A model generated the notes under the pieces. It did no database searches. It was not told where the DNA came from and saw only the letters and a program-made list of their open reading frames with translations. Shown piece after piece: positions 20,463-56,253 of a stretch of 56,253 nt of DNA (position 1 is its first letter; the number at the start of each line of letters is the position of its first letter). Position numbers and translations under genes: made by a program. This stretch comes from Vulcanimicrobiaceae bacterium (GTDB lineage Bacteria > Vulcanimicrobiota > Vulcanimicrobiia > Vulcanimicrobiales > Vulcanimicrobiaceae), in assembly GCA_039923715.1 (NCBI GenBank), contig JBDTCF010000026.1:1-56253 (forward strand), written 5' to 3'.

Positions 20463-20539
<77 letters not shown>

Positions 20540-27381: not shown

Positions 27382-27431
27382 AATGGGGACTACGCGCGCG
27401 GCCCGCGATGCCCTGGTCGGTGGGCGACTCG

Positions 27432-31521: not shown

Positions 31522-32232
31522 ATGCCGCGGCGCACGAGGGGCCGGGGTGACGGCGTTCGCGAAGGCGCCGTCGTGTCACTGTTTTCGCGCATTGCCGACC
31601 ACCGCGATCCGCGCTCACTGGCTTCTCGGCTGCGTGCGCAGCGTCTAGCGTTCTTTCGCCGATTGCTCGCGAGCGTTACGGGACCGGTCACGATTCTCGA
31701 TGTTGGGGGCACGGTCGATTTTTGGAAAAGTCCGGAGTTCGAAAATGACTGGACGAGGGTCGTCCTGCTCAACGTTCGCGCCGAAGCAATTGACGATGCG
31801 CGTTTTGAAAGCGTACTCGGCGATGCGCGCGACCTCGGGGCATTTGCTGACCGGAGTATCGACGTCGTGTACTCCAACTCCGTCATCGAGCATGTGGGAA
31901 CGTTCGACGATCAGCGCAAGATGGCGAACGAGATTCGACGGATCGCGCGACGCTATTTCGTCCAGACGCCGAACGCGCTGTTTCCGATCGAGCCGCACTT
32001 CCTGGTTCCGGGATTCCAATTCATGCCGCTCGCGATGCGGACGCTTCTCCTCCAGCACGCCCGTTTGGGCTGGGTTCCGCGGGAGCGGGATCCTCAGCGC
32101 GCGCGGGATGTCGTCGGGTCCGTGCGCTTGCTTACCGCTGGGCAGATGCGAACGCTGTTCCCCGAAGCGGTCATGTACCGCGAACGCCTCCTGGGCATGA
32201 CCAAGAGCGTCATCGCGTATCACGGATGGTAA
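31522..32232 (+). CDS. class I SAM-dependent methyltransferase
   Basis: Motif I ILDVGGT, an acidic loop, and motif II/III in DVVYSNSVIEHV. The start is uncertain (ATG 31522 or 31474). Confidence 0.75.
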   Translation: MPRRTRGRGDGVREGAVVSLFSRIADHRDPRSLASRLRAQRLAFFRRLLASVTGPVTILDVGGTVDFWKSPEFENDWTRVVLLNVRAEAIDDARFESVLGDARDLGAFADRSIDVVYSNSVIEHVGTFDDQRKMANEIRRIARRYFVQTPNALFPIEPHFLVPGFQFMPLAMRTLLLQHARLGWVPRERDPQRARDVVGSVRLLTAGQMRTLFPEAVMYRERLLGMTKSVIAYHGW

Positions 32233-33529
32233 TGGGCGTGAGGCGGACCGCGCCGCGGACTCCGGCTCGCAGTCCACGATTCGGGTATAGCAACGCCGCA
32301 ACGAAGAATATCCATTCGAACGTATTGTAGTTCGCGAGATAAGTCTCCGTGTAACTTCCGATAACCAGGTAGAGGACGATCATGAGCGGCCAGACCGCAG
32401 TCGGCGCGCGGTCGGTTGCAAGGTACCGTGTTGCGCGAACGATGGCGACGAGCACGAGCGTCGCTAGCAGCGCCAGTCCAACAAAGCCGGCGTCGAGAGC
32501 GATCTGAAGAAAGCTGTCGTGGGCGTGATACGGCGTCCAGCCACCGGCTTGAACGACATAGGAACTGAGGTACTCGTTACCGGTGGAGGAGCCAAAAAAT
32601 GCATTGTATCCGTATCCCAGGACGGCCTGGTCTCCGAACGCTTGGAGCAGATACGGCCAAAAATCGGTACGGCCGGTCAGCGTGTCACTTCGTCCGAGCA
32701 ACTCGAAGACCCGATCGGGCTGTAGGCCGATGAGAAGGCAAACGCCAACGGTCGCCGTCCCGAGCGCGACCAAAAGCAGGCGCCCGGAGAAACCGGCTCG
32801 TGGCGAGTTCCATAGCAGAGCGACGACGCCGAACGCAAGTGCGAGCAGACCCGCTCCGAACGCCGTCGCCGAACGCGAGCCCGCCAGCAGCGCGAGGCAA
32901 AGAAGCGACGCCGCCCCCGCCAAAAGCTTGCGGCGCCGGGTACCCATGAAAAGGGAGGGTACGAGTGCGATTGTTGCCAGCACCATCGCCGCGCCTAAAC
33001 TGTTCTTCTCCTGAAAGACGCCGGACCACGCGCCGCTCCCCCAGTCCATGCGCCCATGCCCGGGCGCGAACACGATGATCAGCAGACTGACCGCCGCGAT
33101 CGTTCCGAAGGCGAGGCCGACGAGATCGAGCAAGCGCCTAAGCGGGTAATAGACGACGAGGTAGTACGCGACGATGGTCGTGCCGACAAGCTCGATTGAG
33201 TTCTTGAACGTCACGGAGGGAGCGACCGACCAAATCGTCGAGAGAACCATGAGCAGCACGAGGGCGCAAAGGACCGTCGAGTGGCGGAGAAGCGTGACGG
33301 TGCGATCACGCTTGGCAAGGAGCCGGACTGCGGCCAAGACGTAGACGACGCTCCAGACGACCTCTCCCAGGGGCGAACTCGTCGGTGCATCCGTGATCTG
33401 ACCCTTCGCGAGTGCCGGGATGAGCGCGATTGCCAGTAATCCGCTGTAGCCGAGCCACCATTCGAGACCGGCCGGTCCGCGAGGGGATTCCGCGACCGCC
33501 TCAACCACTCGCACCGCCCGGCCTGGCAT
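32210..33529 (-). CDS. O-antigen ligase/polymerase-family membrane protein (Wzy-like)
   Basis: About 11 predicted TM segments and a large loop with HAHDSFLQIALDAGFVG, typical of the Wzy_C/O-antigen ligase domain. The start is uncertain: ATG 33529, or GTG 33508 overlapping the upstream stop. Confidence 0.75.
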   Translation of the reverse strand: MPGRAVRVVEAVAESPRGPAGLEWWLGYSGLLAIALIPALAKGQITDAPTSSPLGEVVWSVVYVLAAVRLLAKRDRTVTLLRHSTVLCALVLLMVLSTIWSVAPSVTFKNSIELVGTTIVAYYLVVYYPLRRLLDLVGLAFGTIAAVSLLIIVFAPGHGRMDWGSGAWSGVFQEKNSLGAAMVLATIALVPSLFMGTRRRKLLAGAASLLCLALLAGSRSATAFGAGLLALAFGVVALLWNSPRAGFSGRLLLVALGTATVGVCLLIGLQPDRVFELLGRSDTLTGRTDFWPYLLQAFGDQAVLGYGYNAFFGSSTGNEYLSSYVVQAGGWTPYHAHDSFLQIALDAGFVGLALLATLVLVAIVRATRYLATDRAPTAVWPLMIVLYLVIGSYTETYLANYNTFEWIFFVAALLYPNRGLRAGVRGAVRLTPITIRDTR

Positions 33530-34451
33530 AGGCCCTATACGTATACCCGAGCAGCCCCCCGAGGGCTCCGAGGCCATGTGCGAGATCGCAGGCGGCCGCG
33601 ACGGTTCCTCGGCGCCCGTCCAGCAACGCACGAGGCACGATAGTCACGCATCCGCGCGCAATTCGCGCCGCAGCTTTGAGGGCCCTAAGGATAAGGACGC
33701 GCGGGGCGCCGTTCAGTTTGCGGTCGCTTAGCGACAGCGTGTTACCCCGGCGGAAGTTCAACTTTATCAGGTACGCCGCGGTCAGGCGGTCGGCCGTGAC
33801 GGGCTCGCTTGCGACCGCATGCGCAGCATAGGCGATCGTTGCGCCTCGCCGCCTGAAATCGCGAAAGAACACGAGATCTTCTCCGCCGGCGAAGTTGAGC
33901 GACGGGTCGAAAGCGATCTCGTATCGCTCGATCGAACTGACGCGAACCAGACAGTTGCCGCTGTACCCATCGTTCAGTAGATCTCCGTCAGCATGGACGG
34001 GAAGGTCGAAGAACGTGCCGTTACGCAACCAGCGCGGCGCTTGAGCCGGGACGACGTGTGGCACCGCCCCGACGACAGCATCGGCGCCCGTCGCCGCCTC
34101 GATGCGCAGCAGTTCGCGCAGCCACTGCCGCTGTGGGATCTCGTCGTCGTCGATCATTGCGAGAAACTCGAAGCCTTGGCGCGCGTGATGCAGCGCGAAG
34201 TTCCGCACGGACGAAAGGCCCGGTTGCGGCACGCTTCGGTACTCGAGTGCGAAAGGAAACCGTAGCGCGAGCCGACCCACCAGCGCGGCCGCGGACTGCA
34301 TCGGATCGTTGTCCATCACGAGCACCTCGAGGGCGCAGTCGAGGGGCACCTCGAGAATCGCGATCGCGGTCAGCAGGCGTTCGAGTTCCTGGGAGCGGCG
34401 AAACGTGGGAATCGCGACGCACGTCCGGCGCGTTTTCCGAAGATCAGTCAT
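33501..34451 (-). CDS. family-2 glycosyltransferase
   Basis: CVAIPTFRRSQELERLL, VMDND and MIDDDE (DxD) fit the GT-A fold. The ATG overlaps the upstream stop by 8 nt. Confidence 0.85.
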   Translation of the reverse strand: MTDLRKTRRTCVAIPTFRRSQELERLLTAIAILEVPLDCALEVLVMDNDPMQSAAALVGRLALRFPFALEYRSVPQPGLSSVRNFALHHARQGFEFLAMIDDDEIPQRQWLRELLRIEAATGADAVVGAVPHVVPAQAPRWLRNGTFFDLPVHADGDLLNDGYSGNCLVRVSSIERYEIAFDPSLNFAGGEDLVFFRDFRRRGATIAYAAHAVASEPVTADRLTAAYLIKLNFRRGNTLSLSDRKLNGAPRVLILRALKAAARIARGCVTIVPRALLDGRRGTVAAACDLAHGLGALGGLLGYTYRAYARPGGASG

Positions 34452-35466
34452 AACGCAACTCGAGGCGATGACGTGCGAGGTAGCGGCGCCACCAATCTTG
34501 CAGAGCGACGCGATGAAAGGCTTGGACCGTTTTGCGCGCGGGGGCTACGAGATTGAAACCGGTCTTCGCGAATATCCAGCTCAGCCGATTCTTGAAGCTA
34601 CCCGACAACGCGCCGACGCCGACGTCGGCCTGCAGCCGCCGAGCATGCTGATCGAATCCGTACATCAAAAAGCGAACGTAGAGCGAGCGTATGACGTTGT
34701 CGCGTAAGCGGCCGGCTTCGGTTGGTGAGAGAAGCGGACCGAACTCATCGAGGAGGGCCATCTCCGCGCCGTACGCGCGCTCGTAGTCCGCGAGGATGCT
34801 GCGGCACTTTCCGGCAAGCGTCTGCCGATAGATGGCCAGTCGACGCCCGGTCGGGTAAATCGGGAAGCGCCGGGTGGCGCGCAGGATGAAATCGTGATCC
34901 TCGTGATACCGGAACGGATCGAAGGCGCCGATGGCCTCGAAGATGCGTCGATCGAACAAACAGAGGCTCGGCATCAGAAAGTCTTCGCCGTCGATGAGTA
35001 GATCGAAAGCGCGCCCAGCATGCGTCCGCACCGGCGCGGCGTGCTGCAAGCGCCCGGTGTCGTCGACGGCGTAATACGAACTGTACGCAATTGCAATCGA
35101 CCCGCTGCGTTGCAGGACCGCGAGTTCGCTTGCGACCTTTTCCGGGAACCAGCGGTCGTCGCAGTCGAGAAACGCGACGTATTGGCCGCGCGCTCGCGCA
35201 AGCGCGGAGTTTCGCGCAGCCCCAACCCCGGCGTTCGCTTGGTGCACGACCTGAAGGCGCGGGTCATCGACGGTAGTGAGGCGTTCGAGCGTTGCGTCGG
35301 TCGAGCCGTCGTCGACGACCAACACCTCGAGCGCGCGATGGGTCTGCCGAAGCGCCGACTGCACGGCGCCCAGGACGAGGTTCTCACCTTGATAGACCGG
35401 GAGAATGACCGAGACCAACGGGCTCGCGGCCGCAGGCGAGCAGTTGAGTTCGGGCGCGGCGTTCAC
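34444..35466 (-). CDS. family-2 glycosyltransferase
   Basis: The GTG start has a GTGA overlap with the flippase stop. VSVILPVYQGENLV, VVDDGSTD, NAGVGAARN and FLDCDD are present. Confidence 0.85.
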   Translation of the reverse strand: MNAAPELNCSPAAASPLVSVILPVYQGENLVLGAVQSALRQTHRALEVLVVDDGSTDATLERLTTVDDPRLQVVHQANAGVGAARNSALARARGQYVAFLDCDDRWFPEKVASELAVLQRSGSIAIAYSSYYAVDDTGRLQHAAPVRTHAGRAFDLLIDGEDFLMPSLCLFDRRIFEAIGAFDPFRYHEDHDFILRATRRFPIYPTGRRLAIYRQTLAGKCRSILADYERAYGAEMALLDEFGPLLSPTEAGRLRDNVIRSLYVRFLMYGFDQHARRLQADVGVGALSGSFKNRLSWIFAKTGFNLVAPARKTVQAFHRVALQDWWRRYLARHRLELRYD

Positions 35467-36896
35467 GTTTGTCGCGCCCGCTTGGCCGGGACGAACGAGC
35501 CGAGGTACGTGCGCAGGCTCCGTGGATGCGCGAGCGCGACGGCCGCTCCGTACGCGACGGCGCCGACGGCGAACGAAACGAAGAGACCGAGGAAGGTCGA
35601 GCGAACCGGCACGACCGCGATCGCGGCGACCATCGTGGCCGTTGCGGCAATGACTTTGAACCAACTCTTCCAGGGGATCGGCGTATGCATCAGACGGCGG
35701 GCCCAGACGACGCTGAGCGCCAGGCCGACAACTTCTGCGAGGAGCATGGCCAGCGCGGCGCCAATCGCACCGTACGGGCGAATCAACCAGAGGCTGAACG
35801 CGATCGTCAGAACGACGCGGACGACCGTATTGGCCGCGACCGCTCGGGTTTTGAGCGCAATCTCGAAGATCTGCTCGAAGTAGCTCCCCCGCAGCCCGGA
35901 TAGAAACATCACGGCGGCCCCGATGGCAATGACGGTGCCCGAATGAACGTGGAATCGCGCTCCGAGGTAAATCTCCGAAATCGGTCCCGCCAGGACGATG
36001 AGGCCGACGGCTGCGGGCAAACCGATCGCGAAGACGAGCCTAGCGTTGTTTCGAAGCTGTTCGGCTAGTTGCTCTTTGCTACCGAGATCGCGGGCGCGAA
36101 AGGCGAGTGGCTGTCCGGCGAGCGTTGCCGTTCCGATCAGTAGCCCGACCGTCTGTTGAGAGAAGTCGCTCGCGGCCGCGAATATCCCGACGATGGCGCT
36201 CCCGCCGATCGCCTCGAGGGCGAAGCGCTGAAACGTGTTCGAAACGTAACTCAAAGAAGCGATGCTCGAAGGCCATCCGAAGAGGAAGAAACGAGCGAGC
36301 AAGGTGCGGCTAAAATGCCCGCGCGACGTACCTTTCCATAGACCGAAAGCGCCGAATGCCGCGCAGTTTCCGACGGCGAAACCGCCGAGTAATGCATTCG
36401 CCTTGAATCCGGCTGCGATGAGTGCAAGCGAGCAGAGCAAAGCGCCGAACGCGCGCCCGGTCTGCAACATACCGTAGGCGCCGACGCGCAAACGAGCTTG
36501 TGCGATCGACACGTTGAGTTCGAACCACCCGCTGGCGATCGCGCACGCCGCCGTCAAAGAGGTAGTGGTCCACCCCAAGCCGGGGTTATAGACGCGTAGC
36601 CCTAGGACGATGACCGCACCAACGACCAGCGAGACCGCGGCAAAAGCGAGAGCGATCGTGGCGCCCACGTTGGCTTCGTCGGCGGGTGCGACCGACGCCA
36701 TCATCCGCAGGCTCGCGACGCGCAACCACGAGTATCCGATCAGGCCGACCAAGAACGCAGTGCTTAGAAGAAGAGCGTACGTACCAAAGCTGGCCGGATC
36801 GACCATACGCGTGTAGAGAGCGATGCCGCCGAAGCCGACTGCGGCGGGAAGAAGACGGCCGGCCGCATAGGCCGGCCACTGTTTAAAAAGGTGCAT
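35463..36896 (-). CDS. wzx: oligosaccharide flippase (Wzx, MOP superfamily)
   Basis: 477 aa with about 12-14 TM segments and the polysaccharide-biosynthesis-protein pattern. It sits between glycosyltransferases and export genes. Confidence 0.85.
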   Translation of the reverse strand: MHLFKQWPAYAAGRLLPAAVGFGGIALYTRMVDPASFGTYALLLSTAFLVGLIGYSWLRVASLRMMASVAPADEANVGATIALAFAAVSLVVGAVIVLGLRVYNPGLGWTTTSLTAACAIASGWFELNVSIAQARLRVGAYGMLQTGRAFGALLCSLALIAAGFKANALLGGFAVGNCAAFGAFGLWKGTSRGHFSRTLLARFFLFGWPSSIASLSYVSNTFQRFALEAIGGSAIVGIFAAASDFSQQTVGLLIGTATLAGQPLAFRARDLGSKEQLAEQLRNNARLVFAIGLPAAVGLIVLAGPISEIYLGARFHVHSGTVIAIGAAVMFLSGLRGSYFEQIFEIALKTRAVAANTVVRVVLTIAFSLWLIRPYGAIGAALAMLLAEVVGLALSVVWARRLMHTPIPWKSWFKVIAATATMVAAIAVVPVRSTFLGLFVSFAVGAVAYGAAVALAHPRSLRTYLGSFVPAKRARQT

Positions 36897-36907
36897 TCGT
36901 CAGGCGG

Positions 36908-37750
36908 TCAATCGGCGACCAACGCCTGGAACCATCGCTCGACGAGATCGCAGGTCATCCCATAGTCTCCGAGCCTAAGCTCTGCTACGGCCACACCGGC
37001 GCGCGTTAACTCATCGCCGTCGAGATCGTCGTCGAGCACGAACGGAGCCGCGCGCTCGAGCGAGGGGAACTCGGAGAGGTGGCCGTCGAGTTTTAGGACG
37101 GCACGAAGGCGGCCACCCTCCGCCCACGAGTCGGTCGAACGAACGAGCGTGGGATCGACCGCGCAGAACGCGATGTCGCGCGGCGTCGAATACCACGGCG
37201 AGGTTTCGACGGCGCGCCGATAGGTCATCGGAAGTTCCTCCGTGAGGGACATCGTGACGTAGAGGAGCTTTCGCATCGCGGCGACCTCAAGCGTCTTGCG
37301 GTTGACGAGCGCATAGTCGCCGCCCAACAGCCGCCAGCCTCGCGAGTGCAGATGGGCGCTCAACACAACGCCGGACTCCCAGTCGTCGCCGATGAATGCG
37401 AGCGCGTGTCCGTCGCGCTCGACGACGGCCGCGCGCCAGGCGCAAAGGTGTGCCGCCGCCGCGACGTCGGCAACCAACGACGAGACGATGGCGCCGGCAA
37501 CCCGCGGGAGGGCGCTCGTCGCGCTGAGTACCTTGACGCTTCGCTGGCAGCTGCCGTTGATGCGCCAGACGAATTCGTCGCTCTCGACGTTGATTGAAAC
37601 TCGAATCGGCGAAGTCGCTGACGACGTGCGGGCCGGCGCGAGCGTCTGGTTCAGAATCGCCAGTACGGAACGCGGGGCCCGAATCGTCGCATCGACTCCG
37701 GCGATGCTCACGCACAAGCAATCGGCTCCGGCCGGATCGAGCGTTTGCAC
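36908..37750 (-). CDS. hypothetical protein; weak HprK/PEPCK-like kinase-fold resemblance with a degenerate P-loop
   Basis: AFIGDDWESGVVLSAHLHSRGWRLLGGDYALV resembles, by eye, the G-x-S-G-x-G-K-S...L...GxxLvsDD segment of HprK-related kinases but lacks the Lys and Ser. The GTG start at 37750 shares 1 nt with the upstream TAG. The alternative start is at 37831. Confidence 0.55.
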   Translation of the reverse strand: MQTLDPAGADCLCVSIAGVDATIRAPRSVLAILNQTLAPARTSSATSPIRVSINVESDEFVWRINGSCQRSVKVLSATSALPRVAGAIVSSLVADVAAAAHLCAWRAAVVERDGHALAFIGDDWESGVVLSAHLHSRGWRLLGGDYALVNRKTLEVAAMRKLLYVTMSLTEELPMTYRRAVETSPWYSTPRDIAFCAVDPTLVRSTDSWAEGGRLRAVLKLDGHLSEFPSLERAAPFVLDDDLDGDELTRAGVAVAELRLGDYGMTCDLVERWFQALVAD

Positions 37751-38724
37751 TAAGCGAACACCAAGCGCGCTTCGCGGACCCAGTTGTAAGTGGCTCGCAA
37801 GCCGTCCGCGAGCCCGGTCGAGGGAGACCATCCGAGACTCGCCGCTCGCGTTAAGTCCGGACGTCGTCGGCGTGGATCGTCCAAGCGTGCCGGCAGGTGC
37901 GCAAACGGGGCGTTCGTCATCCCGGCGATGCCGACGAGCGTACGCGCAATCTCTTCGACACTGCGCTCGTCGTCGCTTCCGACGTCGATGGGAGCGAGCG
38001 CGCGGGCCACGGATTCCATCGCGAGCACGATGAGTTCTACCGCGTCGTCGACGTAAAGAAGCGAGCGTCGTTGGCGGCCGTTGCCGTGGATTGGCAGAGG
38101 ATTCCCTTCGAGCAGCGCGTCGATGAGGGCGGGCACTAGGCCGTCGCCATCTCGGTCTATGCCCGGTCCATAACAGTTAAAGAGACGTGCGATGCGCCCG
38201 TCGAGAGCGCGCGACCGGACCGCCGCCGCGACCGCCGCTTCGCCGAAGCGCTTGCCTTCGTCGTAGGCGCTGCGCGGCCCGAGTGCCGCCACGTTACCGC
38301 CGTCGCTCTCAGTTTGTGGATGGACCAATGGATCTGCGTAGACCGCGGCCGACGAAGCAAACAGGAAGCGCGCTCCATGCTCGAGCGCCAACTCGATCAG
38401 CGACATCGTCGCCAGGCCGTTGACGGCGAGCGTTCCCCACGGATCGTTCCGGTACGCTTGTGGACCACCCGGCGAGGCGAGGTGGTAGATGCGGTCGATC
38501 TTCGCCTTCGTTGCATTGGCGACGATCTCGGCCAGCCGGGGGTAGGGGACGGCGACGTCCGCATACACGAACGTGGCGCGTCCCGACGAGAGCCCGTGCT
38601 CGAGGTTTCTCACGTGACCGGTTGAGACGTTGTCTACGACGATCGCTCGGTCGCCGCGGTCGACGAGTGCGTCGACCAGGTGACTGCCGAGGAAGCCGGC
38701 GCCGCCCGTAATGAGGTTCAACAT
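37750..38724 (-). CDS. NAD-dependent epimerase/dehydratase (UDP-glucuronate decarboxylase-like extended SDR)
   Basis: The start MLNLITGGAGFLGSHLV carries the Rossmann motif GxxGxxG. The catalytic YxxxK is in SAYDEGKRF. The upstream 58 codons of the track ORF were rejected. Confidence 0.9.
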   Translation of the reverse strand: MLNLITGGAGFLGSHLVDALVDRGDRAIVVDNVSTGHVRNLEHGLSSGRATFVYADVAVPYPRLAEIVANATKAKIDRIYHLASPGGPQAYRNDPWGTLAVNGLATMSLIELALEHGARFLFASSAAVYADPLVHPQTESDGGNVAALGPRSAYDEGKRFGEAAVAAAVRSRALDGRIARLFNCYGPGIDRDGDGLVPALIDALLEGNPLPIHGNGRQRRSLLYVDDAVELIVLAMESVARALAPIDVGSDDERSVEEIARTLVGIAGMTNAPFAHLPARLDDPRRRRPDLTRAASLGWSPSTGLADGLRATYNWVREARLVFA

Positions 38725-38737
38725 TCGATCGAACGTG

Positions 38738-39388
38738 CTATTGCGCGAGTGATTCGGCCGGCAAAGCATACGACCGCGCGTGCTTTGCTTCGGAGAGACG
38801 GAGTCGCTCGCGTCCGGCAACACGTTCGCCCGGCCGGAGCCGCTCGAAACGTGCGATGGTGTCGGCATCGGCGGCGACAATTCCGACGACGCGCCCACCG
38901 GATTGCTCGATCGTCCGGATCGTCAGCTGGTCTTCGTCGGACGGGGCCCGCCCGATGCGCACCGTTAAGAGGACGCCGTCGACCGAGTGGGCCAGCGCCA
39001 TCGCGGCGTTGCTGCTCAAGAACGTTCCCGCATCGACGATCGTGAAGTCGTACTTGGCGCGCATTTCTTGGACGAACGTCGCGAGGCGATCGCGGCCGAT
39101 GACGCTGCCATCTTCGCGGGACAGTTCGGCCGTCGTACCCTCGCCGACTTCCTTTCCCCGTCCCGTCAGTGAGACGAGAGCTGCGCGGTGGCCAGACTTC
39201 ATGAGGCTGCTGGCCAGCGAATGCGCCGTCAGACTCTTCCCGTCGCCGTCGAGCGCCGAGGTGACCATGACCACGGCGGGCATCTCGAACTCGGCTTCGA
39301 CGCGCGAGCGGAGCAGGTGCACTTGATGGTTCAAGGGGGTCTCGCTCGTTTCGATCCCCTGAAGATCGATGTCAATCGGCTCGTTCAT
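38738..39388 (-). CDS. CpsD/CapB-type (BY-kinase-like) P-loop ATPase, no C-terminal Tyr cluster
   Basis: The start has an ATGA overlap with the Wzz stop. Walker A is in VMVTSALDGDGKS and the Walker B-like motif is DFTIVDAG. The C-terminal 40 aa contain a single Tyr. Confidence 0.8.
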   Translation of the reverse strand: MNEPIDIDLQGIETSETPLNHQVHLLRSRVEAEFEMPAVVMVTSALDGDGKSLTAHSLASSLMKSGHRAALVSLTGRGKEVGEGTTAELSREDGSVIGRDRLATFVQEMRAKYDFTIVDAGTFLSSNAAMALAHSVDGVLLTVRIGRAPSDEDQLTIRTIEQSGGRVVGIVAADADTIARFERLRPGERVAGRERLRLSEAKHARSYALPAESLAQ

Positions 39389-40731: not shown

Positions 40732-40745
40732 GTGCTTATCCCCGT

Positions 40746-42062: not shown

Positions 42063-42064
42063 GC

Positions 42065-43824: not shown

Positions 43825-43952
43825 CCGGACCGCCTCCTTCGAGCGACGCGCCGTACGTGCAGCGGGGTGTCGCCTTCGACTGTAGGCTTACAGCCTAACG
43901 CGAATGCTCAAGCCTGCCAATAACCCAAACCGGGGATGCAGACGAACGCGAG

Positions 43953-45985: not shown

Positions 45986-46007
45986 AGGAATGACTCCACT
46001 ATCTCCT

Positions 46008-49000: not shown

Positions 49001-50018
49001 GATCCTCGAGCGGGACGTGGCGCTGTTCCAGCGCGTCGGTGACGGAGTCGCGTGCCCGAACGAGCAGGTCGCTAAAGGGCGGATCGCCCTCTACGTCCGT
49101 GCGTAACGCGACCGTGTTGACGAAGGTCCCGACGAGTTGCTCGAAATCGACCTCTTCGCGGCCCGCAACTTGTGTCCCTAACACGATGTCGGTAGCGCCT
49201 GAATAGCGATGAAGGAGCACGAGCAGCGCCGCGTATGCAGTCATGAAGAGCGTACAGTTGTTCGCTCGAGCCAGCTCCGCCAAACCGCCGGAGAGGCGAC
49301 GTTCGAGCAACCGGGAGACGATGTCCCCGTTCGCAGTCTGGATCGGTGGCCGTGGCTTATCGGGAACGATCTCGAAACGCTCGAATCCCTGTAGCATCTT
49401 GCCGACATCACTATCGAACTCCGTCGACGACAGCGACTCCTGTTCCCAGGCCGTGTAGTCGACGTAGGTTGCGGTGAGTTCGGGCAGCGCAGGCGGCCGG
49501 CCGGCGGCGAGGTCGGCGCAGACCTGTCCCATCTCGCGGGCGAGGACCCCGACCGACCACCCGTCGCAGACCGCATGGTGCGCGGTCACCAAGAGCGTCG
49601 AAATACGCGGCCGTACACGAACGTGCGTGACCCGAACGAGCGGCGCGGTGGCCACGTCGAACGTGCGCTGCGCTTCGAGCAGGGCGACCCGATCCGCCTC
49701 GGCGTACGCTTCGTGCTCCGGCAGCGTCGTCAAGTCGATGAGGGGGATGTGAAACGCGACGACCGTCTCGACGACTTGCTGCGGCTCGCCCGCGACGGTC
49801 GTGAAGCGCGTCCGTAGAGGTTGATGGCGTGCGATGATGATATCCCACGCCTGCTCGAGCCGCGCGTGCGGGACGTCGCCTTCGAGACGCCAGCGTACCG
49901 CAACGTTGAGCCCGGGATTGTCGGGATGGAGCTGCGACTCAAACCAAAAGCGCTTTTGCGACTGAGAGCACGGTAACGACGGCGCGTACGGCTCGTCGCG
50001 CACAGGACTGGAGGTCAT
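46008..50018 (-). CDS. non-ribosomal peptide synthetase, C-A-T-TE (terminal module, Val-like specificity by eye)
   Basis: HHAVCDGWS (C); YVMYTSGSTGSPKGV, NGYGPTENTTF, YRTGDRVR and GRLDDQVKIRGFRIE (A); FALGFHSLL (PCP); LFFFHGD...GGFCASGLVAFE...GGH (TE). The ATGA overlap ties it to the upstream synthetase. Confidence 0.97.
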   Translation of the reverse strand: MTSSPVRDEPYAPSLPCSQSQKRFWFESQLHPDNPGLNVAVRWRLEGDVPHARLEQAWDIIIARHQPLRTRFTTVAGEPQQVVETVVAFHIPLIDLTTLPEHEAYAEADRVALLEAQRTFDVATAPLVRVTHVRVRPRISTLLVTAHHAVCDGWSVGVLAREMGQVCADLAAGRPPALPELTATYVDYTAWEQESLSSTEFDSDVGKMLQGFERFEIVPDKPRPPIQTANGDIVSRLLERRLSGGLAELARANNCTLFMTAYAALLVLLHRYSGATDIVLGTQVAGREEVDFEQLVGTFVNTVALRTDVEGDPPFSDLLVRARDSVTDALEQRHVPLEDLVAIVNPKRDLSRNALFSVNFVYQRSFIQNATYGSFKLVDLPSRSAGPICDLNFFMVERPEGWRVSCEFNTDLYRLETVERMLDHFLTLLDSVVRAPHSPLSELSLMGEDERRLVITLGAGESSAYERGLSVQRIFGRQVARTPQAIAVSAEAATLTYAELDRRSNQLARYLRGLGIGPQSAVGVALERSPDVPVVLLGILKAGASYVPLAPEFPRERIGFIVADAGVSLILTERTSLNRLPKDGATIVDLAEASASIGAQRDDALDEVGGPDAPAYVMYTSGSTGSPKGVTVVHRAIARLVRHTNYVNLGADDIVLQYAPLAFDASTFELWAALLNGGRLAVAPPGILTLAELDRAVAGFSVTTLWLAAAVFREAVERGFQSFGSVRRLLVGGDVVSPLHARRFVEEYPNCRLINGYGPTENTTFSCAYVIPSPDAIGHSVPIGRPIANSSAYVLDAKLQPVSLGMVGELCVGGDGLSLGYVNLPGLTAERFVRDPFSDDPGARLYRTGDRVRQHADGNLEFLGRLDDQVKIRGFRIEPSEIEAVLSNHPGVADARTIVGTEPSGDKAIWAYVVPRTADREGLTVDELRVWLGARLPAFMIPSAIVLLPTLPRLSSGKLDRSALPHPTRQGAAEPRAEPSPTEARLAEILGRLLGLERIDRDVDIFALGFHSLLAVRLAAQVQQEWGVELRLRPLLEQPTIAAISATIDAFSDGRATAAVPIVTLNGSGSRPPLFFFHGDLFAEGLYAHRLGTALGPDQPMYAVAPHATAGLPLLPTIEDMATDYAARIRSVQPRGPYRLGGFCASGLVAFELARILRSDGETVEALVLMNSSPMPSKKIAFFDAVIRRFGRDARLNPRLRDRFCYNLARLHAAAVSGPFAGLPAAWRALRSLANRSHRPAGVQEPQPFEKRRGARETESSFAHLVAAFTYHPKIYDGAVTLLWGEDQTTMFDDPTMGWGAVAKRVDLVSMRGGHVGAVHERIEELASTLRTVLGA
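46011..46810 (-). other. domain: type-I thioesterase with Cys at the nucleophile position
   Basis: PLFFFHGD, PYRLGGFCASGLVAFELA (TGC codon at 46587-46589 where the GxSxG Ser is expected) and MRGGHVG near the C-terminus. Confidence 0.8.
46880..47080 (-). other. domain: peptidyl carrier protein (module 2)
   Basis: IFALGFHSLLAV, with the Ser codon at 46983-46985. Confidence 0.85.
47120..48600 (-). other. domain: adenylation (module 2; hand-read code D-A-F-W-L-G-G-T-F, Val code)
   Basis: FDASTFE, TTLWLA, LLVGGD, NGYGPTENTTF, YRTGDRVR and GKLDR. Confidence 0.8.
48700..49970 (-). other. domain: condensation (module 2)
   Basis: SQSQKRFWFESQL, HHAVCDGWS, and downstream motifs to SCEFNTDLY. Confidence 0.85.
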
Positions 50019-53000
50019 GGTGACCTCTGTTCGGCGGCTCGGCGCAGGCCGGCACGTTCGGGTTGCTGCGTGGGCCGCAAGCGCGCGACCGAAGCGGACG
50101 GGACGTCCGAGCGCCGTTTATCCGATGTTCGGGCCAACTCGTCGAGGCGCAGCGCCAATGCGGCGATCGTCGGGTGCCGCAGCAGTTCTTTGGCAGCGAG
50201 ACGAAGGCCGGCCCGGTTCGCCCGTGCCGTGATTTGGAAGAGCTGGATCGAATCGCCGCCGAGCGCGAAGAAGTCGTCGTCGAGTCCGACGCGTTCGAGG
50301 TGGAGAACATCGGCCCAGACCCGCGCGAGTAACAGTTCCGTTGGCGTGACCGCGGCCCGAAAGCGGTCGCTGTCAGCCGTCGGTTCCGGCGCTGGTAGCA
50401 AGCTGCGGTCGACTTTTCCGGCGACCGAAAGCGGCATGCGCTCCAGCTTGGTCCAGACCGATGGAATCATGAAGTCCGGAAGGTGCGCCGCCGCGAGCGC
50501 CCGCAGCTCTGCCGGTGTGCGACCAGGTTCCTCACGGTCGACATAGTAGGCCGCCAGCCGGGGCTCGCCCCCTCGATCCTCACGCAGTACGACCGCGACT
50601 TCGGCCAGCCCGCCTTCTTTTTGAACGACCGTTTCAATTTCGGCCAGTTCGATCCTGAAACCGCGAAGTTTCACTTGACGGTCGAGGCGACCTAAAATCT
50701 GCACGCGTCCATCGCGCGCGATTCGCGCGCGGTCTCCAGTACGGTACATACGGCCGTTACCAAACGGATTGGCGACAAACTTCTCGGCGCTGAGCTGCGC
50801 TCGGTTCACGTAGCCGCGTGCGACCCCGTCCCCGGCGACGTTCAGATGACCCGGAGCGCCGATCGGTACCGGGCGATCGCGGCGATCGAGAACGTAGAAC
50901 TGCGTGTTCGCTATCGGCGTCCCGACGGCAATCGGCTCGTCGCCGATTTCGATCTTTCCGCACGACGACCAAATCGTCGTCTCGGTCGGGCCGTAGACGT
51001 TCCAGAGGGTCCCGCCGCCGGCGAGCAGCCGGTTCGCAAGCTCGCGCGTGAGCGTTTCGCCGCCGCAGATCATTGTGAACCCCGCATGCGACTGAAAGCC
51101 GGCAGCGAGCAGCAGCTGCCAGAGCGCCGGAGTGGCCTGCATCGCCGTCGCTCCGAGGGCTCGCGCGCGCCGTGCGAGGGCGAACGCATCGGAAGTCTCT
51201 TCGCGGGATGCGATCGCGACGGTCGCACCGACGACCAGCGGCAGGAACAACTCGAGCGCGGCGATGTCGAACGAAACGGTCGTCACGGCCAGCAGAAGGT
51301 CGTCCCTACCAAAACCGGGCGTCCGCGACATTGACGTCAGCAGGTTAACGACCGAGCGGTGCGCGATCTCGACCCCTTTCGGCTCGCCGGTCGAGCCGGA
51401 GGTGTAGATGACGTAGGCCGCGTCGTCGCCCGACCGAGCGACGGCAGGCGCCTGCGAAGATGCAGCGCCAAGCGCTTGGGCGGCTTCACTCACGTCGATC
51501 CGTTCGACTGTGCCGGACGCGATCGCGGCGTCGGCCGTGCCGTCGTCGATGAGCGCGGCGACGCCGGCATCGTCGAGGATACGGCGTAGCCGCGCGACCG
51601 GATGGGCGGTGTCGAGCGGCAGGTAACTACACCCGGCGGCGAGTGTTGCCAGCATGGCGACCAGAAGGTTGGGCGTGCGGTCGACGCAGATCGCAATGCG
51701 CCGGCCGGCCCCGACGCGCTCGAGCAGGTGGTTCGCCATCTGATTGACGCGTCGTTCCAAAGCGGCAAACGTCAGCGTCTCGTCGCCGAAACGCACGGCG
51801 ACGGCATCCGGGTTGGCCGCGGCGCTCGCGCGGAACAGCTCGTGCACCGTCTGCGCGACCGGATAGGCGGCGGCGGTGGCGTTGAGGCCCGCGAGCAGTT
51901 GACGCTCGTCGTCCGGAAGGAAATCAACGCCGGCCACGGGCTGCGAGGCGTCCTGGCCGATTCGTTCGAGGAGCGTACGGAAGTAGCCGAGCCACCGCTC
52001 GATCGTTGAGGCGTCGAAAAGATCGGCGTTGTAGTCGCAATCGAGGCGCAGGCCGTCACGCGACTCGACGACGTTGAGAAAGAGATCGAAGTTTACGAAT
52101 GCCTTCGGATTCGGCTCGACCCGCGCTTGCAGGGGGCCAAAGTCCAAGTCTTCGGCCAGGCGTTCCAGATTGAATTGAATCTCCGCAATTGGGACGCGGT
52201 TGTTCTCGCGCTGCACGGCTAAGCTGCGAACGAGGGTGCCGAGCGTGTATTCTTGGTGCTCGTACGCGTCGATGACTTGATGCTTGAGGCTGGATAAGAG
52301 GTCGCGAAGCGTGGTCTCGGACGTTCGCCGAGCGCGGATCGGCAAGAAATCCACGCAGTGGCCGACGAGCGTATCGCCGCCGAGGAGCGCCTGTCCGGCG
52401 GCCGGCACGCCGACGACGACGTCGTCCCGATCGGCAAGGCGTCCGACGAGCACGTCGAACGCCGCCAGCAGCGTCACGAACAGCGTACAACCGTGTCGCG
52501 CGCCCGCTTGTTTGATCGCGCGGGAAGCGTCGTGGCCGACGAATGCGGTCCGGGTCGCTCCCCGGTACGTCCTCGTCGCCGGTCGCGGCCGGTCCGTCGG
52601 TAGGTCGAGGACCGTCGGCAGATCTTCGAACTGCGCGAGCCAATAGGACTCGACCTTAGCACGCTCCTCGGGATCGCGCGCGGCTTGGCGGCGCGCGTAG
52701 TCCGCGAACGCAAGCGCTTCGGGCAACTGCGGCTCCTGCTGCTTGGAAAGCGCGGAATAGGTTTGCGCCAGTTCGGAGAGGATCACGTTCATCGACCACC
52801 CGTCGCAGACGATGTGGTGCGCCGTGAAGACGAAGGCGTGTTCGTCGAGGGTGAGCCGAACCAGGTGTCCGCGCACGAGCGGCCCGTTGCTTAGGTCGAA
52901 CGCAGTTCGAGCATCCTCGGCGACGATCGCGCAGAAGTCCGCCTCCCGTTGGGAGGTCGAACCGCCGGAAAGATCCGTCCGTGGATACGCGCGCGGGCTG

Positions 53001-56000
53001 GGGGACGCGAAGTGCATCATTTCGCCGGTCGTGCCGAAAGCGGCGCGCAAGGCATCGTGTCGGGCGATGACACGTTCCCACGCGGTCTGAAATGAGGACT
53101 CATCGAGCGATCCGCGCAGACGGAGCGTAACCGACTCGTTGAAGGCGCACGAGGCGTCGTCGCCAACCTGCGCCGAAAGCCAAATCTCGGTTTGTTCCTC
53201 CGTCAGCGCGACCGAGGCGAGGTCCGTCCGCGGAACGATTACCGGAAGGGCCGGCGCTCGCGCAACGAACACGCCGGCGCTCTGCAACTCGTCGAGGCTC
53301 TCCGAAAAAGCGGCCACGATCGCGTCGACATCGGCATCGTCGTGCTCGGTGCCCAAGAAACTCGGGAAGCCTTCCTGCACGTAGATGCCGCGCAGGCGGA
53401 GGTGATAGTAGAGCAGGCTCGCGAGGCGGTCCTCGGTAGCGAAGTTCAGATAAAAGAGGCTGCCGTAGGTTTCGATGCGCGAGACGATGCCGCGTCGTTC
53501 GAGCTGTGCGTTGAGGCGTTCGACGAGTCCGGCGGTGCGGCGTCCAAGCGCGACTTGGAGTTTCGGTCCCTCGGCTTTTACCCGCTGCAGCACGGCGAGC
53601 ACGGCCGCCATGGCAAGAGGGTGGCGCACGAACGTACCGGCGATGAACGTCGGCGCGACTTGTGGGAAGGAATCGTCTCCGTATTGCCACGCGCCGCCAT
53701 CGAGCGCGTCCATGAACCGGGCCTTCCCGGCGAGAATGCCGATCGGAAGACCGCCGCCGACGACTTTGCCGTAGGTCGCGAGGTCGGCCTTGATGCCGAA
53801 GATCGCCTGCATGCCGCCCGGATGCATGCGAAACCCCGTGACGACCTCGTCGAAAACGAGCGCGGCGCCAGAAGCTTCGGTGATCCGACGCAATTCGAGC
53901 AGAAAGTCTTTTGGCGCGAGCCCGGGATGCCGGCTTTGGACCGACTCGACGACCACGGCCGCCAGCTCGTCCCGGTGTTCGCGCACCCAGACCAAACTCT
54001 CATCGGCTCCGTACGGCAGGACCGTAATGTTCGCGACGGCCTCGGCGGGAATGCCGAGCGCAACGGGGAGCGAGCGATTCGACGTTCGTGAGCCCTTCAC
54101 GAGGACTTCATCGAACTGCCCGTGATACGCCCCTTCGAAGATGACGACGCGGTCTCGGTTGGTCACCGTCCGCGCGACGCGCAGGGCCGCCATTACGGCC
54201 TCGGAGCCGGTGTTGCAGAAGGTGATTCGCTCGTTGCCGGTCAGTTCACAAAAGAGTTCCGCCGCTTCGCCGGCGAGCTGGGTCTGCGGCCCGATCGCAA
54301 ATCCGGTGCGTAGCTGTTCGGAAACGGCGTCGACGACGAAGTCGGGTACGTGTCCGAACGCCGTCTGACCGAAACCGTTGAGCAAGTCGAGGTACTCGTT
54401 GCCGTCGGCATCCCAGATGCGCGACCCCTTCGCACGCACGCAGGTGATCGGATAAACCATCTCCTTCCACTCGCTGCGGAATCCGGCGGCGACGCGGGGA
54501 TCGGCCAGCACCTTGCGGTAGCGCTGGGTCAAGCGCTTCGATTCGCCCGTGCGAGCGACGGTGCGCGCGACAAGATCGTCGATGTGCTCGCGTTGCGCGG
54601 GCGTAACGTCTGCTTTTTGCGCCCCGGCGATGCCGAATGCTTCGGCCGGCGAAGCGGCCGCGGGCCGGCAAGCCTCCACCGCGGGAGCCGCCGGTTCTAG
54701 CGTCGGCGCAGCACGTTCGAGCGCCGGCGCAGCGGACTCGATCCCGAACGCCTTGAGCGTTTGTAACTGCTCGCGCAGCAGGCCCTGCAGCGCCTGCAGT
54801 TGCTCGCGCATCAGGCCTTCAACCGCCTCCGGAAGCGGCGCGGACGCGAGGGGTGCGCGCGGCGGAATTCGCGAGCCGGTTTCGGTGGAAACCGCTTCCG
54901 TCACCGGGCGGGCCGGCATCCGAGCGGCAAGGTGGTCCGCCAGCGCAACGATCGTGGGGAGGTCGCTAAGAAGTTGCCGAAAGCTCGCGCTGACGCCAAA
55001 ACGCAACTGGACTTGCTGGACGAAGCGGCCGAGAAACAACGAGTCGAATCCGAGTTCGAGAAAGGTCGCACGCGGATCCGCATCGGCGAGCCGCTCTCCC
55101 GAGAGTTCCTCCAGCAGCGCGAGCAGTTCGGTACGCGCGCGCGCCGAGGCCGCGGTGGTTTCCACGTGACCGGATTCAACGTCATGATGGTGCATGCTCT
55201 CCGTCCGCGGCGGTGCCGCTACGCTCGAATTGGGTTCGAGCCAGTGGCGTGTGCGCTCGAATGGATACGTCGGGAGGGAAACGCGCGAGCGGACCGTACC
55301 GCGCGCAAGCGCGTCCCAGTCGGGCGTCGCACCGGCGATCCACAAGCGACCCAGCGTCTCGAGCAACCCCTCGAAATCGCCGATCTCGCGCTCGCTGCCG
55401 GGCAACGTGCGAAGGACAATCGCGTCGCCGTTCTTGGCGGCGCCTTGTAACGCGAACGTCGAGAGCGTTGCGCCCGGTCCCACTTCGAGCAGCACATTCA
55501 CGCCGCCGTCCACGAGCGTCTGCAAAGCGTCCGCAAATCGAACCGGGACGCGACAGTGCCGCGCCCAATAGTCCGCACTGGTCGCTTCCGCGTCTTCGAT
55601 CCACGTACCGGTCACTCCCGATACGTACGGTAGCGAGGGTGGCGAGAGTAGCTTCCCCGCGACGCGTCGCGAGAGCGGCGCGAGCACCGGCTCCATCATT
55701 GCCGAATGGAACGCATGCGACGCGTGCAACCGTCGCGAGCTGACGCCCGTTGCGGCGAGGCGCAGCTCCATTTCTTCGATGGCGTCCAGCGTTCCCGAGA
55801 CGACGGCTAGTCGTGGCGCGTTGAGCGCGGCGATGTCTAGGTTGCGCTCCAGCAGCCTGCCGAGCTCGGATTCGCCGGCCCGCACGACCAGCATTGCGCC
55901 TGCCGGGAGGTCCTGCATCAGACGGCCTCGCTCGGCGACGAGCGTAAGCGCGTCTTCGAGCGAGAATACGCCGGCCAAACACGCAGCGACAAATTCCCCG

Positions 56001-56253
56001 ACACTGTGTCCGACGACGGCGGCCGGCTCGATGCCGTAGTCTTGCAATACTTTCGCCAAGGCGTACTCAACGGCGAACAGCGCCGGCTGCGCGATCCGGG
56101 TCGCCGTCAAATCGGCCGCCTGGTCGCCGGCAAACAGCAGCGTGCGCAGGTCTCGCCCGAGCAGCGGCTGCAGGATATCGGCGCAAGCATCGAAGCACGT
56201 TCGAAACGTCGTAGCGCGCTCGTAAAGGCCACGTCCCATCCCGAGGTACTGTG
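50015..56253 (-). CDS. hybrid PKS/NRPS, 5'-truncated by the window: AT-ACP-aminotransferase-C-A-T
   Basis: The frame is open to the window edge ([11 protein letters not shown] is the start of an AT domain). GHSVGE/HAFHS, LGFDSL, a class-III aminotransferase block, [24 protein letters not shown]...[15 protein letters not shown] and LGGDSIQ are present. Confidence 0.97.
   Translation of the reverse strand, partial: [2078 protein letters not shown]
50130..50340 (-). other. domain: peptidyl carrier protein (module 1)
   Basis: [14 protein letters not shown], with the Ser codon at 50249-50251. Confidence 0.85.
50390..51870 (-). other. domain: adenylation (module 1; hand-read code D-I-L-Q-I-G-V-I-W, Gly-like)
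   Basis: [40 protein letters not shown] and GKVDR. Positions were assigned by aligning to the GrsA numbering from memory. Confidence 0.8.
51960..53215 (-). other. domain: condensation (module 1)
   Basis: [22 protein letters not shown], and downstream C-domain motifs up to [10 protein letters not shown]. Confidence 0.85.
53280..54610 (-). other. domain: class-III (glutamate-1-semialdehyde aminomutase-like) aminotransferase embedded in the synthetase
   Basis: [55 protein letters not shown] and the PLP-lysine context [14 protein letters not shown]. Confidence 0.85.
54920..55150 (-). other. domain: acyl carrier protein
   Basis: [14 protein letters not shown], with the phosphopantetheine Ser codon at 55040-55042. 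Confidence 0.85.
55241..56253 (-). other. domain: acyltransferase (malonyl-type by the HAFH motif)
   Basis: GMGRGLYE, the active site GHSVGE (Ser codon 56003-56005), SHAFHS and the post-AT linker [11 protein letters not shown]. Confidence 0.9.

Follow-up and report, generated by a model that had tools for sequence, protein, structure and literature searches.

Background

Thiotemplate assembly lines are usually taken to produce free secondary metabolites, and Wzx/Wzy loci to produce glycan alone; what, then, is made where the two stand together? This question is raised by a contig of an uncultured soil bacterium of the Vulcanimicrobiaceae (GenBank assembly GCA_039923715.1, contig JBDTCF010000026.1; 56,253 nt, the whole of which is referred to here as the window), in which the tail of a hybrid polyketide synthase-nonribosomal peptide synthetase (PKS-NRPS) gene, a second NRPS gene, two glycosyltransferase genes and 11 Wzx/Wzy/Wza-type polysaccharide genes follow one another on the minus strand from 56253, the edge of the window, down to 32210. 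A preliminary description of this block had hypothesized that the assembly line and the polysaccharide machinery are functionally linked. Conserved synteny across relatives supports that proposal: the pairing was found in at least three phyla and four major lineages (Eremiobacterota, Alpha- and Gammaproteobacteria, and Acidobacteriota), and we regard a functional link of some kind, as judged from gene content and order, as very likely. A run of 15 tightly packed, co-directional genes is by itself ordinary for such loci; the pairing exceeds chance because it recurs in other genomes.

Genome-mining tools at present divide loci of this kind, calling one part an "NRPS-PKS cluster" and leaving the sugar locus unannotated. 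That the pairing is kept across distant lineages suggests that the product is a hybrid polymer of the envelope or matrix, or that two products are made in close coupling. If true, this would be a new way to decorate or anchor bacterial surface polysaccharides, in abundant and little-known soil phyla.

Layout of the block

Every homology-supported gene between 56253 and 32210 lies on the minus strand, as had been claimed. The 15 genes are given below from the window edge downward, with the evidence for each in brackets.

50015..56253, minus: hybrid PKS-NRPS, 3' part, cut by the window edge, AT-ACP-class-III aminotransferase-C-A-PCP (Pfam)
46008..50018, minus: terminal NRPS module, C-A-PCP-TE (Pfam)
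45101..45985, minus: DUF6492 protein (Pfam PF20102)
43953..45104, minus: divergent GT4-like glycosyltransferase, 383 aa (homologues, alignment, AlphaFold2, Foldseek)
42685..43824, minus: Wza-type outer-membrane export protein (OPX) (Pfam Poly_export, 61 bits, and SLBB; NCBIfam)
42065..42700, minus: small polyprenyl-phosphate phosphoglycosyl transferase (PGT; Bac_transf), initiating (Pfam, 186 bits against a cut-off of 27; NCBIfam)
40746..42062, minus: UDP-sugar 6-dehydrogenase of the UDP-Glc/GDP-Man dehydrogenase family (Pfam, three domains)
39385..40731, minus: Wzz/PCP-like chain-length protein (weak; sub-threshold TIGR03007 and TIGR03017, Pfam Wzz E = 0.005)
38738..39388, minus: BY-kinase-like P-loop ATPase (weak; Pfam AAA_31, with TIGR03018 and TIGR01007 below cut-off)
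37750..38724, minus: NAD-dependent sugar epimerase/dehydratase (Pfam Epimerase, 162 bits)
36908..37750, minus: conserved 280-aa protein, unk280 (weak match to HprK-related kinase A; synteny)
35463..36896, minus: Wzx-type flippase of the Polysacc_synt/MurJ superfamily (Polysacc_synt, 35.8 bits against a cut-off of 28.2)
34444..35466, minus: GT2 glycosyltransferase (Pfam)
33501..34451, minus: GT2 glycosyltransferase (Pfam)
32210..33529, minus: Wzy_C-domain membrane protein, last gene of the run (Pfam Wzy_C, 53 bits against a cut-off of 31.7)

The start of the C-A-PCP-TE gene overlaps the stop of the PKS-NRPS gene upstream (ATGA). The 128-nt gap at 43825-43952 is, as described, the sole one in the block longer than 22 nt, and after it we count 11 polysaccharide genes, not the 13 first reported. 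Their junctions do conform to the earlier figure of 14 nt or less, ranging from -29 to +14 nt with ATGA/GTGA overlaps among them; the range depends on the starts chosen, and longest-ORF (open reading frame) starts would lengthen the overlaps. The end of the block at 32210 also stands, the next real gene being a convergent methyltransferase on the plus strand.

Conservation of the pairing outside the phylum

The window has the look of a MAG contig from the phylum Eremiobacterota (Vulcanimicrobiota): the closest relatives of its proteins come from metagenome-assembled genomes (MAGs) labelled Candidatus Eremiobacter(ae)ota, Vulcanimicrobiota, Vulcanimicrobiaceae or Velthaea. Loci for comparison, each designated by an L number, were collected by a DUF6492 profile scan with one genome per species, the window proteins being mapped onto 36 loci; further loci came from exact-protein look-ups and from a metagenome scan with the aminotransferase domain, whose flanks were mostly too short to show more than the line and which contributed chiefly L047 and the control set. 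No flank went beyond 10 kb, and "absent" means not within that reach. Taxon labels of MAG bins can mislead: L009 is labelled Alphaproteobacteria and L007 Acidiferrales, and both have Eremiobacterota-like genes.

Outside the phylum the orthologous lines are ~50-55% identical to that of the window. All six of the loci with full flanks have a PGT within 10 kb, with the line standing among Wzx/Wzy-type polysaccharide genes ("loader" denotes the adenylating protein that precedes the line in relatives).

L042, Methylovirgula sp. 4M-Z18, CP149574.1 at 126-154 kb: Bac_transf, loader, line, PAF-AH-like, Poly_export, Wzy_C
L043, Steroidobacteraceae MAG: Poly_export, Bac_transf, other genes, line, PAF-AH-like, other genes, Wzx
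L044, Bryobacteraceae MAG: Wzz, kinase-like, Poly_export, Wzx, GT4, GT4, line, Bac_transf
L047, metagenome: Bac_transf, phosphopantetheinyl transferase (PPTase), loader, line, Wzx
L128, metagenome: Bac_transf and DegT upstream, Wzx 44 nt past the TE gene
L129, metagenome: Bac_transf, GT2, FemAB-like

The last two were picked before their gene context was known. When 43 unrelated aminotransferase loci from the same scan were searched with the same query panel, none gave a match to PGT, Wza, Wzx or Wzy. Between phyla the PGT, Wza, Wzy and Wzx proteins are 25-40% identical where measured, against ~50-55% for the line; because the polysaccharide genes are far more diverged than the line, and because gene orders differ, one frozen inherited arrangement does not explain the pattern. 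DUF6492 is absent from the line's loci outside the phylum. Furthermore, the fully visible loci, inside or outside the phylum, showed no ABC, MFS or RND exporter adjoining the line, and the recurrent export functions near it are Wzx and Wza only.

These results bear on the alternative that two independent loci are neighbours through hitch-hiking on one genomic island or through common ancestry. Adjacency in one genome indeed proves nothing, a few relatives lack one partner in the visible flank, and there is a slight G+C dip at the bridge genes. However, in Eremiobacterota, Alpha- and Gammaproteobacteria and Acidobacteriota alike the pairing has come through many changes of gene order, with low identity of the polysaccharide genes between phyla, and none of these genes occurs at the matched control loci; independence is therefore, in our judgement, very improbable.

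In the proteobacterial loci a sigma-54 activator lies beside the line (L043:5231-6688, L128:1-2566, L129:6559-7986), to which L128 adds a HisKA histidine kinase; FemAB-like (Acetyltransf_6) genes adjoin the line in L043 (8457-9824) and L129 (26099-28514). This set recalls exopolysaccharide (EPS) loci of the PEP-CTERM/exosortase type; the window proteins match the pepcterm_* models only below cut-offs.

Conservation of the pairing inside the phylum

In most Eremiobacterota relatives the assembly line lies beside, among or inside Wzx/Wzy-type genes, in varied orders. The NRPS-glycosyltransferase-EPS synteny that the preliminary description had put up for checking is thus kept, in shuffled form, in most of these relatives as in the six outside loci. 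The window's own order recurs, as NRPS-DUF6492-GT4-like-(GerE)-Wza, in L002, L017 and L038, and in L007 without the GT4-like gene. Elsewhere the two gene sets are mixed in other ways. L046 has, upstream of the loader, the epimerase, unk280, Wzx, two GT2 genes, Wzy_C and WecG; the polysaccharide operon of L009 encloses a C-A-PCP-TE module, between unk280 and GT4/PMT_2/DUF6492/Wza; L011 has, before Wza, a C...TE ORF without an A domain, a Cupin_8 gene, a stand-alone A domain and a PAF-AH-like hydrolase; and in L005 an NRPS gene follows Wzy, with only its C and PCP-TE parts matching the window protein. Because DUF6492 itself sits within the polysaccharide operons of L005, L006, L009, L011 and L036, the gene sets are interleaved and not merely adjacent. 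L008 and L014 seemed to be counter-examples, a reading that was rejected when polysaccharide-type genes were found on the other side of the line.

Genes in several frames (PKS-NRPS, DUF6492, epimerase, unk280) were seen in L010 and L017; these are most likely long-read assembly frameshifts rather than pseudogenes.

The bridge genes

The two halves of the block are joined by the DUF6492 gene and the gene for the 383-aa protein, and the step from NRPS to bridge is short.

45986..46007, minus: NRPS-DUF6492 junction, 22 nt, with ribosome-binding-site-like motifs AGGAG and GGAG

The NRPS stop codon (TAA, 46010-46008), the 22-nt spacer AGGAGATAGTGGAGTCATTCCT and the TTG start of DUF6492 at 45985 read as the preliminary description had them, GGAG included, and a scan of the junction gave no terminator-like site between the TE gene and DUF6492. 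DUF6492 follows the TE gene directly in most Eremiobacterota relatives that carry the assembly line. An exact-protein look-up of the window DUF6492 returned a single match, a read contig of 1.2 kb.

The AlphaFold2 model of the DUF6492 protein (pLDDT 95) has a GT-A-type fold, and its Foldseek matches, at TM scores of 0.5-0.6, are CpsY (E = 2e-8), GT6, GT8, glycogenin and GNPTAB; CpsY of M. tuberculosis is a Stealth-type hexose-1-phosphate transferase. In the DxD-type motif, Asp115-Ser116-Asp117, the first two residues are invariant and Asp117 is at least 90% conserved. From this we predict that DUF6492 is a soluble GT-A-fold sugar or sugar-phosphate transferase.

The 383-aa protein has no Pfam match of its own; some homologues match PF00534 (Glycos_transf_1) and are named glycosyltransferase. 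Its AlphaFold2 model (pLDDT 84) finds GT-B/GT4 enzymes by Foldseek (GlgM, MshA, BshA, AviGT4, TarM and WaaG), the EX7E glutamates Glu244 and Glu252 are invariant across 19 homologues, and a profile of the protein against PDB sequences matched GT4 chains at the EX7E motif, weakly (E = 0.017). On the evidence of the model and these motifs, the protein is a divergent GT4-like glycosyltransferase with a GT-B fold, so that both genes deserve the label "glycosyltransferase-like" given to them earlier. The GTGA overlap reported between them holds if the second gene starts at GTG 45104 (a 4-nt overlap); a start at GTG 45086, leaving a 14-nt gap, fits the alignment equally well. A start further downstream was excluded, the conserved N-terminus beginning at residue 19 of the long ORF, and the database gene call for 43953-45104, of 303 aa, is too short, dropping ~75-80 N-terminal residues that include the conserved GRDVLLFFEDRDRDTF.

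The G+C content falls to 0.59-0.62 over 44000-47000, where these two bridge genes lie, against ~0.65 on both sides and ~65% for the window; the dip could reflect more recent acquisition or different codon usage.

A further alternative is one in which DUF6492, the GT4-like protein and, in relatives, PMT_2 (GT-C) and Wzy_C proteins would glycosylate the peptide, as gtf genes glycosylate mycobacterial glycopeptidolipids, and the 11-gene operon would make a separate, unrelated exopolysaccharide. The junction of NRPS TE and DUF6492 is the most conserved one in Eremiobacterota and persists where no full polysaccharide operon was seen nearby (L039/L127, L045), in loci that carry tailoring-like genes (Cupin_8 hydroxylase-like, methyltransferase, PMT_2 and Wzy_C). 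Three observations make this alternative improbable: the lines outside the phylum lack DUF6492 and still keep PGT, Wzx and Wza beside them; DUF6492 lies within the polysaccharide operons of the five interleaved loci named above; and DUF6492 proteins of ~30% identity occur in ordinary GT2-containing sugar loci that have no NRPS.

One MAG has a CDP-diacylglycerol pyrophosphatase gene (PF02611) after DUF6492 instead of the GT4-like gene (L039:10967-12040, L040:2416-3141); this locus occurs twice in the assembly, on contigs of 562 kb and 10 kb.

The polysaccharide genes

The polysaccharide half has an initiating PGT and a MOP-family Wzx flippase, and its Wza exporter is clear; by its sequences it appears to be a typical though divergent Wzx/Wzy/Wza system. 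Several members are more distant. The Wzx protein matches NCBIfam HfsF with E = 6e-40, below the equivalog cut-off. The Wzy_C domain is common to polymerases, WaaL ligases and PglL-type O-oligosaccharyltransferases, which the sequence does not separate here. No Pfam match was obtained for the 280-aa protein, whose gene always adjoins the epimerase gene in relatives.

An XrtA/PEP-CTERM exosortase-associated EPS locus was considered and rejected, with TIGR03027, TIGR03007, TIGR03018, TIGR03013 and TIGR03098 all far below their cut-offs; no exosortase gene was found among the window ORFs scanned, which lie past its first 16 kb.

The assembly line and its predicted product

The AT domain of the PKS-NRPS gene carries the motifs GHSVG and HAFH, the signature of a malonyl-type AT, and the carrier serine motifs could be read in the same gene. 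Because Pfam found no KR domain in this gene in the window, the beta-keto group would be open to the aminotransferase domain. Full-length orthologues (~2600 aa, 66-72% identity) have the order KS-AT-ACP-AMT-C-A-PCP (AMT, aminotransferase), with KS at the start; AT through PCP is present in the window, and KS is taken from these orthologues.

The A domains were aligned to a GrsA-PheA reference, the register being verified by Asp235, Lys517 and the code DAWTIAAICK. The codes read DILQIGVIWK in the PKS-NRPS gene and DAFWLGGTFK in the terminal module, which we take to be Gly-like and the classical Val code, respectively; in orthologues from other phyla both modules carry a Gly-like code.

In relatives the line is preceded by a loader of ~610 aa with AMP-binding and PP-binding domains and by a PPTase, or the loader is fused to it (~3300 aa). 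These loaders match the amino-acid adenylation model TIGR01733 of NCBIfam at 438 bits against a cut-off of 317, keep Asp235 and have the codes DAFFLGVTFK, DAFWLGGTFK or DALWLGGTFK (Val/Ile/Leu-like). A reading of the loader as a fatty acyl-AMP ligase with carrier protein ("FAAL-ACP"), taken from the Pfam AMP-binding match, was rejected, since NCBIfam and the code identify an amino-acid A domain; no fatty-acyl ligase was seen among the relatives' loaders by either means, the window's own loader lying beyond the contig end. The product had been described as a lipopeptide, a claim that we drop because the relatives' loader is an amino-acid adenylation domain. Loader and starter are both assigned from relatives at ~70% identity, the own loader falling past the 56253 edge. 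With that basis, the predicted product is a small peptide-polyketide, (branched-chain amino acid + C2, beta-aminated)-Gly-Val.

Additionally, a divergent accessory operon lies upstream of the loader in L041 (619-7094), L045 (1-7279) and L127 (1-5489), a position that would fall beyond the 56253 edge in the window. It comprises three Cupin_8/JmjC-like genes, a PAF-AH-like alpha/beta hydrolase and a TIGR04325-family methyltransferase, to which are added a type-II thioesterase (L045, L127), one or two PMT_2 (GT-C) genes (L041, L045) and/or Wzy_C. This gene content suggests steps of hydroxylation, methylation and periplasmic glycosylation.

Transcription of the two halves

The preliminary description had treated the run as one block, and, taken to mean a single unit, that view is not supported: the 128-nt gap contains a promoter-like element, conserved before the polysaccharide operons of relatives, which was located by alignment and motif searches.

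43892..43929, minus: promoter-like element TTTGGGTTA, -35 TTGGCA (43920-43915), 17-nt spacer, -10 TAGGCT (43897-43892)

A scan for consensus promoters and terminators returned nothing at the NRPS-DUF6492 junction or in the gap; the scanner missed the element because its -10 keeps only three of the six consensus bases. When the gap is aligned with the Wza-upstream regions of L038, L002, L017 and L007, one near-identical island stands out and the rest is unalignable. This island, TTTGGGYTATTGGCAG, is followed after ~16 nt by TA(C/G)G(C/T)T, and the overall pattern is TTTGGGYTA, TTGnnn, N17, TAnnnT, of which the TTTGGGYTA part is invariant. The 12-mer TTYGGGYTATTG occurs 11 times in 3.8 Mb of fetched DNA (both strands), against ~1.8 expected for uniform base composition, and ten of the 11 closely precede a Wza, Wzz or PMT_2 gene and point the same way as that gene. 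L038 and L041 represent one and the same place, which leaves nine distinct sites: that of the window and eight in Eremiobacterota-type relatives, on seven contigs (L002:16340, L007:5742, L017:12895, L038:13203, L009:10951 and 7088, L005:10900, L006:7009). The motif searches gave no match in front of the loader/NRPS operon in L041, L045, L046 or L127.

We prefer a sigma-70-like -35/-10 interpretation of the putative element. A sigma-54 interpretation (TGGCA...GC) was rejected, the GG-to-GC spacing being one base short and the GC absent in L017. The invariant TTTGGGYTA may be where a regulator binds, possibly the GerE/LuxR protein encoded nearby; in the closest relatives (L002, L017, L038, L007) a divergent GerE/LuxR gene lies just upstream of Wza, at the position of the gap. 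It is most likely, from this conservation, that the polysaccharide operon has its own promoter, possibly regulator-dependent, and there are probably two transcription units, one of the NRPS genes with DUF6492 and the GT4-like gene and the other from Wza through Wzy. Read-through across the gap is possible, because no hairpin with a T-run lies between the two units.

An operon with its own conserved promoter-like element is what would be seen if two separate products were co-produced, a free peptide-polyketide (a signal, metal binder, antibiotic or wetting agent) and an exopolysaccharide, within one biofilm or surface programme and with no covalent bond between them. GerE/LuxR-type or sigma-54-type regulators adjoin the line in many loci, so that co-regulation alone could hold the genes together, and simple release by hydrolysis would be in keeping with a terminal TE domain. 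We nevertheless consider such a pair of products unlikely: all loci examined lack a dedicated exporter for a free metabolite, and in several lineages transferases, PGT or Wzx abut or split the assembly-line genes, an arrangement tighter than co-regulation usually needs.

A model for the product

Because the genes are interleaved, because PGT is always present and Wzx occurs in most loci, and because no other export route is encoded, we rank a single glycoconjugate first: one pathway whose product, destined for the envelope or matrix, would be a polysaccharide or glycoconjugate that carries the peptide, a reading that genomic context makes plausible and that we hold tentatively. Gene identities, folds, the order of domains, A-domain codes and the conserved neighbourhoods are what the analysis shows; the starter amino acid in this genome, the chemistry of joining and the meeting of both branches in one molecule are the inferred part. 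In this model the A-PCP loader, whose gene is off the window and known from relatives, would load a branched-chain amino acid, which KS-AT-ACP would extend with malonyl-CoA; the in-line aminotransferase would replace the beta-keto group by an amine, so that a 3,4-diamino-acyl unit results; Gly and then Val would be added, and TE would release or transfer the chain. The polysaccharide branch would begin on undecaprenyl phosphate via the small PGT, and GT2, GT-A (DUF6492) and GT4-like transferases would elaborate the glycan with uronic or epimerised sugars, after which Wzx would flip it, Wzy would polymerise it and the Wzz, kinase and Wza proteins would serve export. The peptide-polyketide would be joined either to the polysaccharide built by Wzx/Wzy or to its undecaprenyl-linked repeat unit.

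Several points weigh against this model. The genes examined include no obvious ligase for the proposed covalent joining; the loader and starter unit rest on relatives (~70% identity), not on the window contig. The polysaccharide operon keeps its own conserved promoter-like element, and in the closest relatives a divergent regulator gene splits the two halves, so that separate control is possible. In L045 and L127 the NRPS and DUF6492 are present and no full polysaccharide operon is visible: a divergent operon that contains Cupin_8-like, PAF-AH-like, TE-II and methyltransferase genes, and in L045 also PMT_2, runs to a single Wzy_C gene 10 kb upstream, where the fetched region ends. L010, L015 and L016 have NRPS/DUF6492 and no polysaccharide genes within the visible flank; conversely, L006 and L036 have polysaccharide genes and DUF6492, and no NRPS within reach. 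Finally, loci within the phylum are not phylogenetically independent, and L129 resembles L043, which leaves ~4 independent lineages.

A more specific form of the single-glycoconjugate model is a lipid-II-like route to a non-ribosomal "peptido-glycan" exopolymer, in which the diamino-acyl-Gly-Val peptide (a Gly-Gly peptide in other phyla) would be put on an undecaprenyl-PP-linked sugar by the TE domain, or by the recurrent alpha/beta-hydrolase or FemAB-like proteins; Wzx would then flip the product, the Wzy_C protein would polymerise or ligate it, and Wza would export it. We offer this route as a doubtful proposal. If true, it would define an unrecognised class of peptide-bearing surface polysaccharide reaching from Eremiobacterota to Proteobacteria and Acidobacteriota. 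Methylovirgula sp. 4M-Z18 has a strain-like name and a single replicon of 4.8 Mb, and the hypothesis may be directly testable there.

Comparison with known systems

The WcbR/RkpA type I PKS is a conserved resident of surface-polysaccharide loci (Burkholderia wcb, rhizobial rkp-1) (PMC3908369). It is the nearest precedent for the present locus, and the sole one that we could document for a thiotemplate enzyme in a surface-polysaccharide locus, the likeness being that of a thiotemplate megasynthase within a locus for surface-polysaccharide biosynthesis and export. WcbR and RkpA are mono-modular, FAS-like PKSs in capsule loci of the ABC-transporter (Kps) type, and are presumed to supply a non-sugar moiety for the polymer. 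Here, in contrast, a hybrid PKS-NRPS, which has two amino-acid modules and an aminotransferase domain in line, stands in a locus of the Wzx/Wzy/Wza type, and no Kps transporter genes were found among the Pfam-scanned ORFs of the window.

In its domain order, KS-AT-ACP-AMT-C-A-PCP, the line resembles MycA/ItuA (mycosubtilin/iturin) and McyE (microcystin), in which the beta-keto thioester is converted to a beta-amino acyl unit that enters the peptide. Those systems use a fatty-acid (acyl-AMP ligase) or phenyl-derived starter, make large cyclic peptides and are not known to include polysaccharide genes, whereas here the relatives' loader is an amino-acid A-PCP, only two further residues follow and a polysaccharide pathway is attached.

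The other half resembles the E. coli group 1 capsule and colanic acid loci and the Caulobacter holdfast Hfs system, with PGT, glycosyltransferases, Wzx, Wzy_C, Wzz/PCP-like, kinase-like and Wza proteins encoded in a tight operon; several of the components here differ in matching only below family cut-offs. We know of no Wzx/Wzy-dependent locus with an NRPS/PKS line. The mycobacterial glycopeptidolipid (GPL) locus, in which NRPS genes, glycosyltransferases and methyltransferases make a surface glycoconjugate, shares the clustering of NRPS with glycosyltransferases and methyltransferases; its peptide starts from a lipid, is built by four amino-acid modules and leaves by MmpL, and the locus is not known to have the PGT, Wzx, Wzy or Wza polymer machinery. 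Dlt, by DltA/DltC adenylation and carrier proteins, and lipid II/Fem, by peptide-adding enzymes that work on an undecaprenyl-PP-sugar before a MOP-family flippase turns it over, also decorate lipid-linked or envelope glycopolymers with amino acids or peptides, and the FemAB-like genes of L043 and L129 are part of this likeness. There is no homology beyond the generic A-domain and flippase superfamilies, and DltB/DltD and Mur ligases are absent; the analogy would be mechanistic only. Literature searches yielded no description of this NRPS-PKS/Wzx-Wzy pairing or of DUF6492 in the library covered, which does not prove novelty.

Genes beyond the block

Past the lower end of the block the following genes were identified.

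31474..32232, plus: Methyltransf_11 methyltransferase, convergent with the Wzy_C gene, marking the block end (Pfam, 35 bits against a cut-off of 21.2)
30656..31618, minus: LuxR/GerE-family regulator, with homologues placed divergently between the GT4-like gene and Wza in the closest relatives (Pfam GerE; tblastn and gene calls in relatives)

An AhpC/TSA protein, on the plus strand, comes after the regulator. A minus-strand ORF at 31645-32301 (218 aa, "orf218") was rejected as a gene extending the block, being an antisense shadow of the Methyltransf_11 gene (Pfam); its tblastn matches in L005, L006, L008 and L011 are the antisense image of that gene, and for the copy in L008/L045, which has a weak Methyltransf_11 match, the gene caller chooses the opposite strand. 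The Methyltransf_11 gene is kept in related loci, where it adjoins Wzy in L005 and DUF6492 in L008/L045 and is also present in L006 and L011.

Some 4-7 kb past the block end, at 25414-28652 on the minus strand, lie genes for a 655-aa AMP-binding enzyme that resembles acetyl-CoA synthetase and for a patatin-like phospholipase of 406 aa. A single tRNA-Met (CAT) at 20463-20539, also on the minus strand, is the sole Rfam/ARAGORN match in the window.

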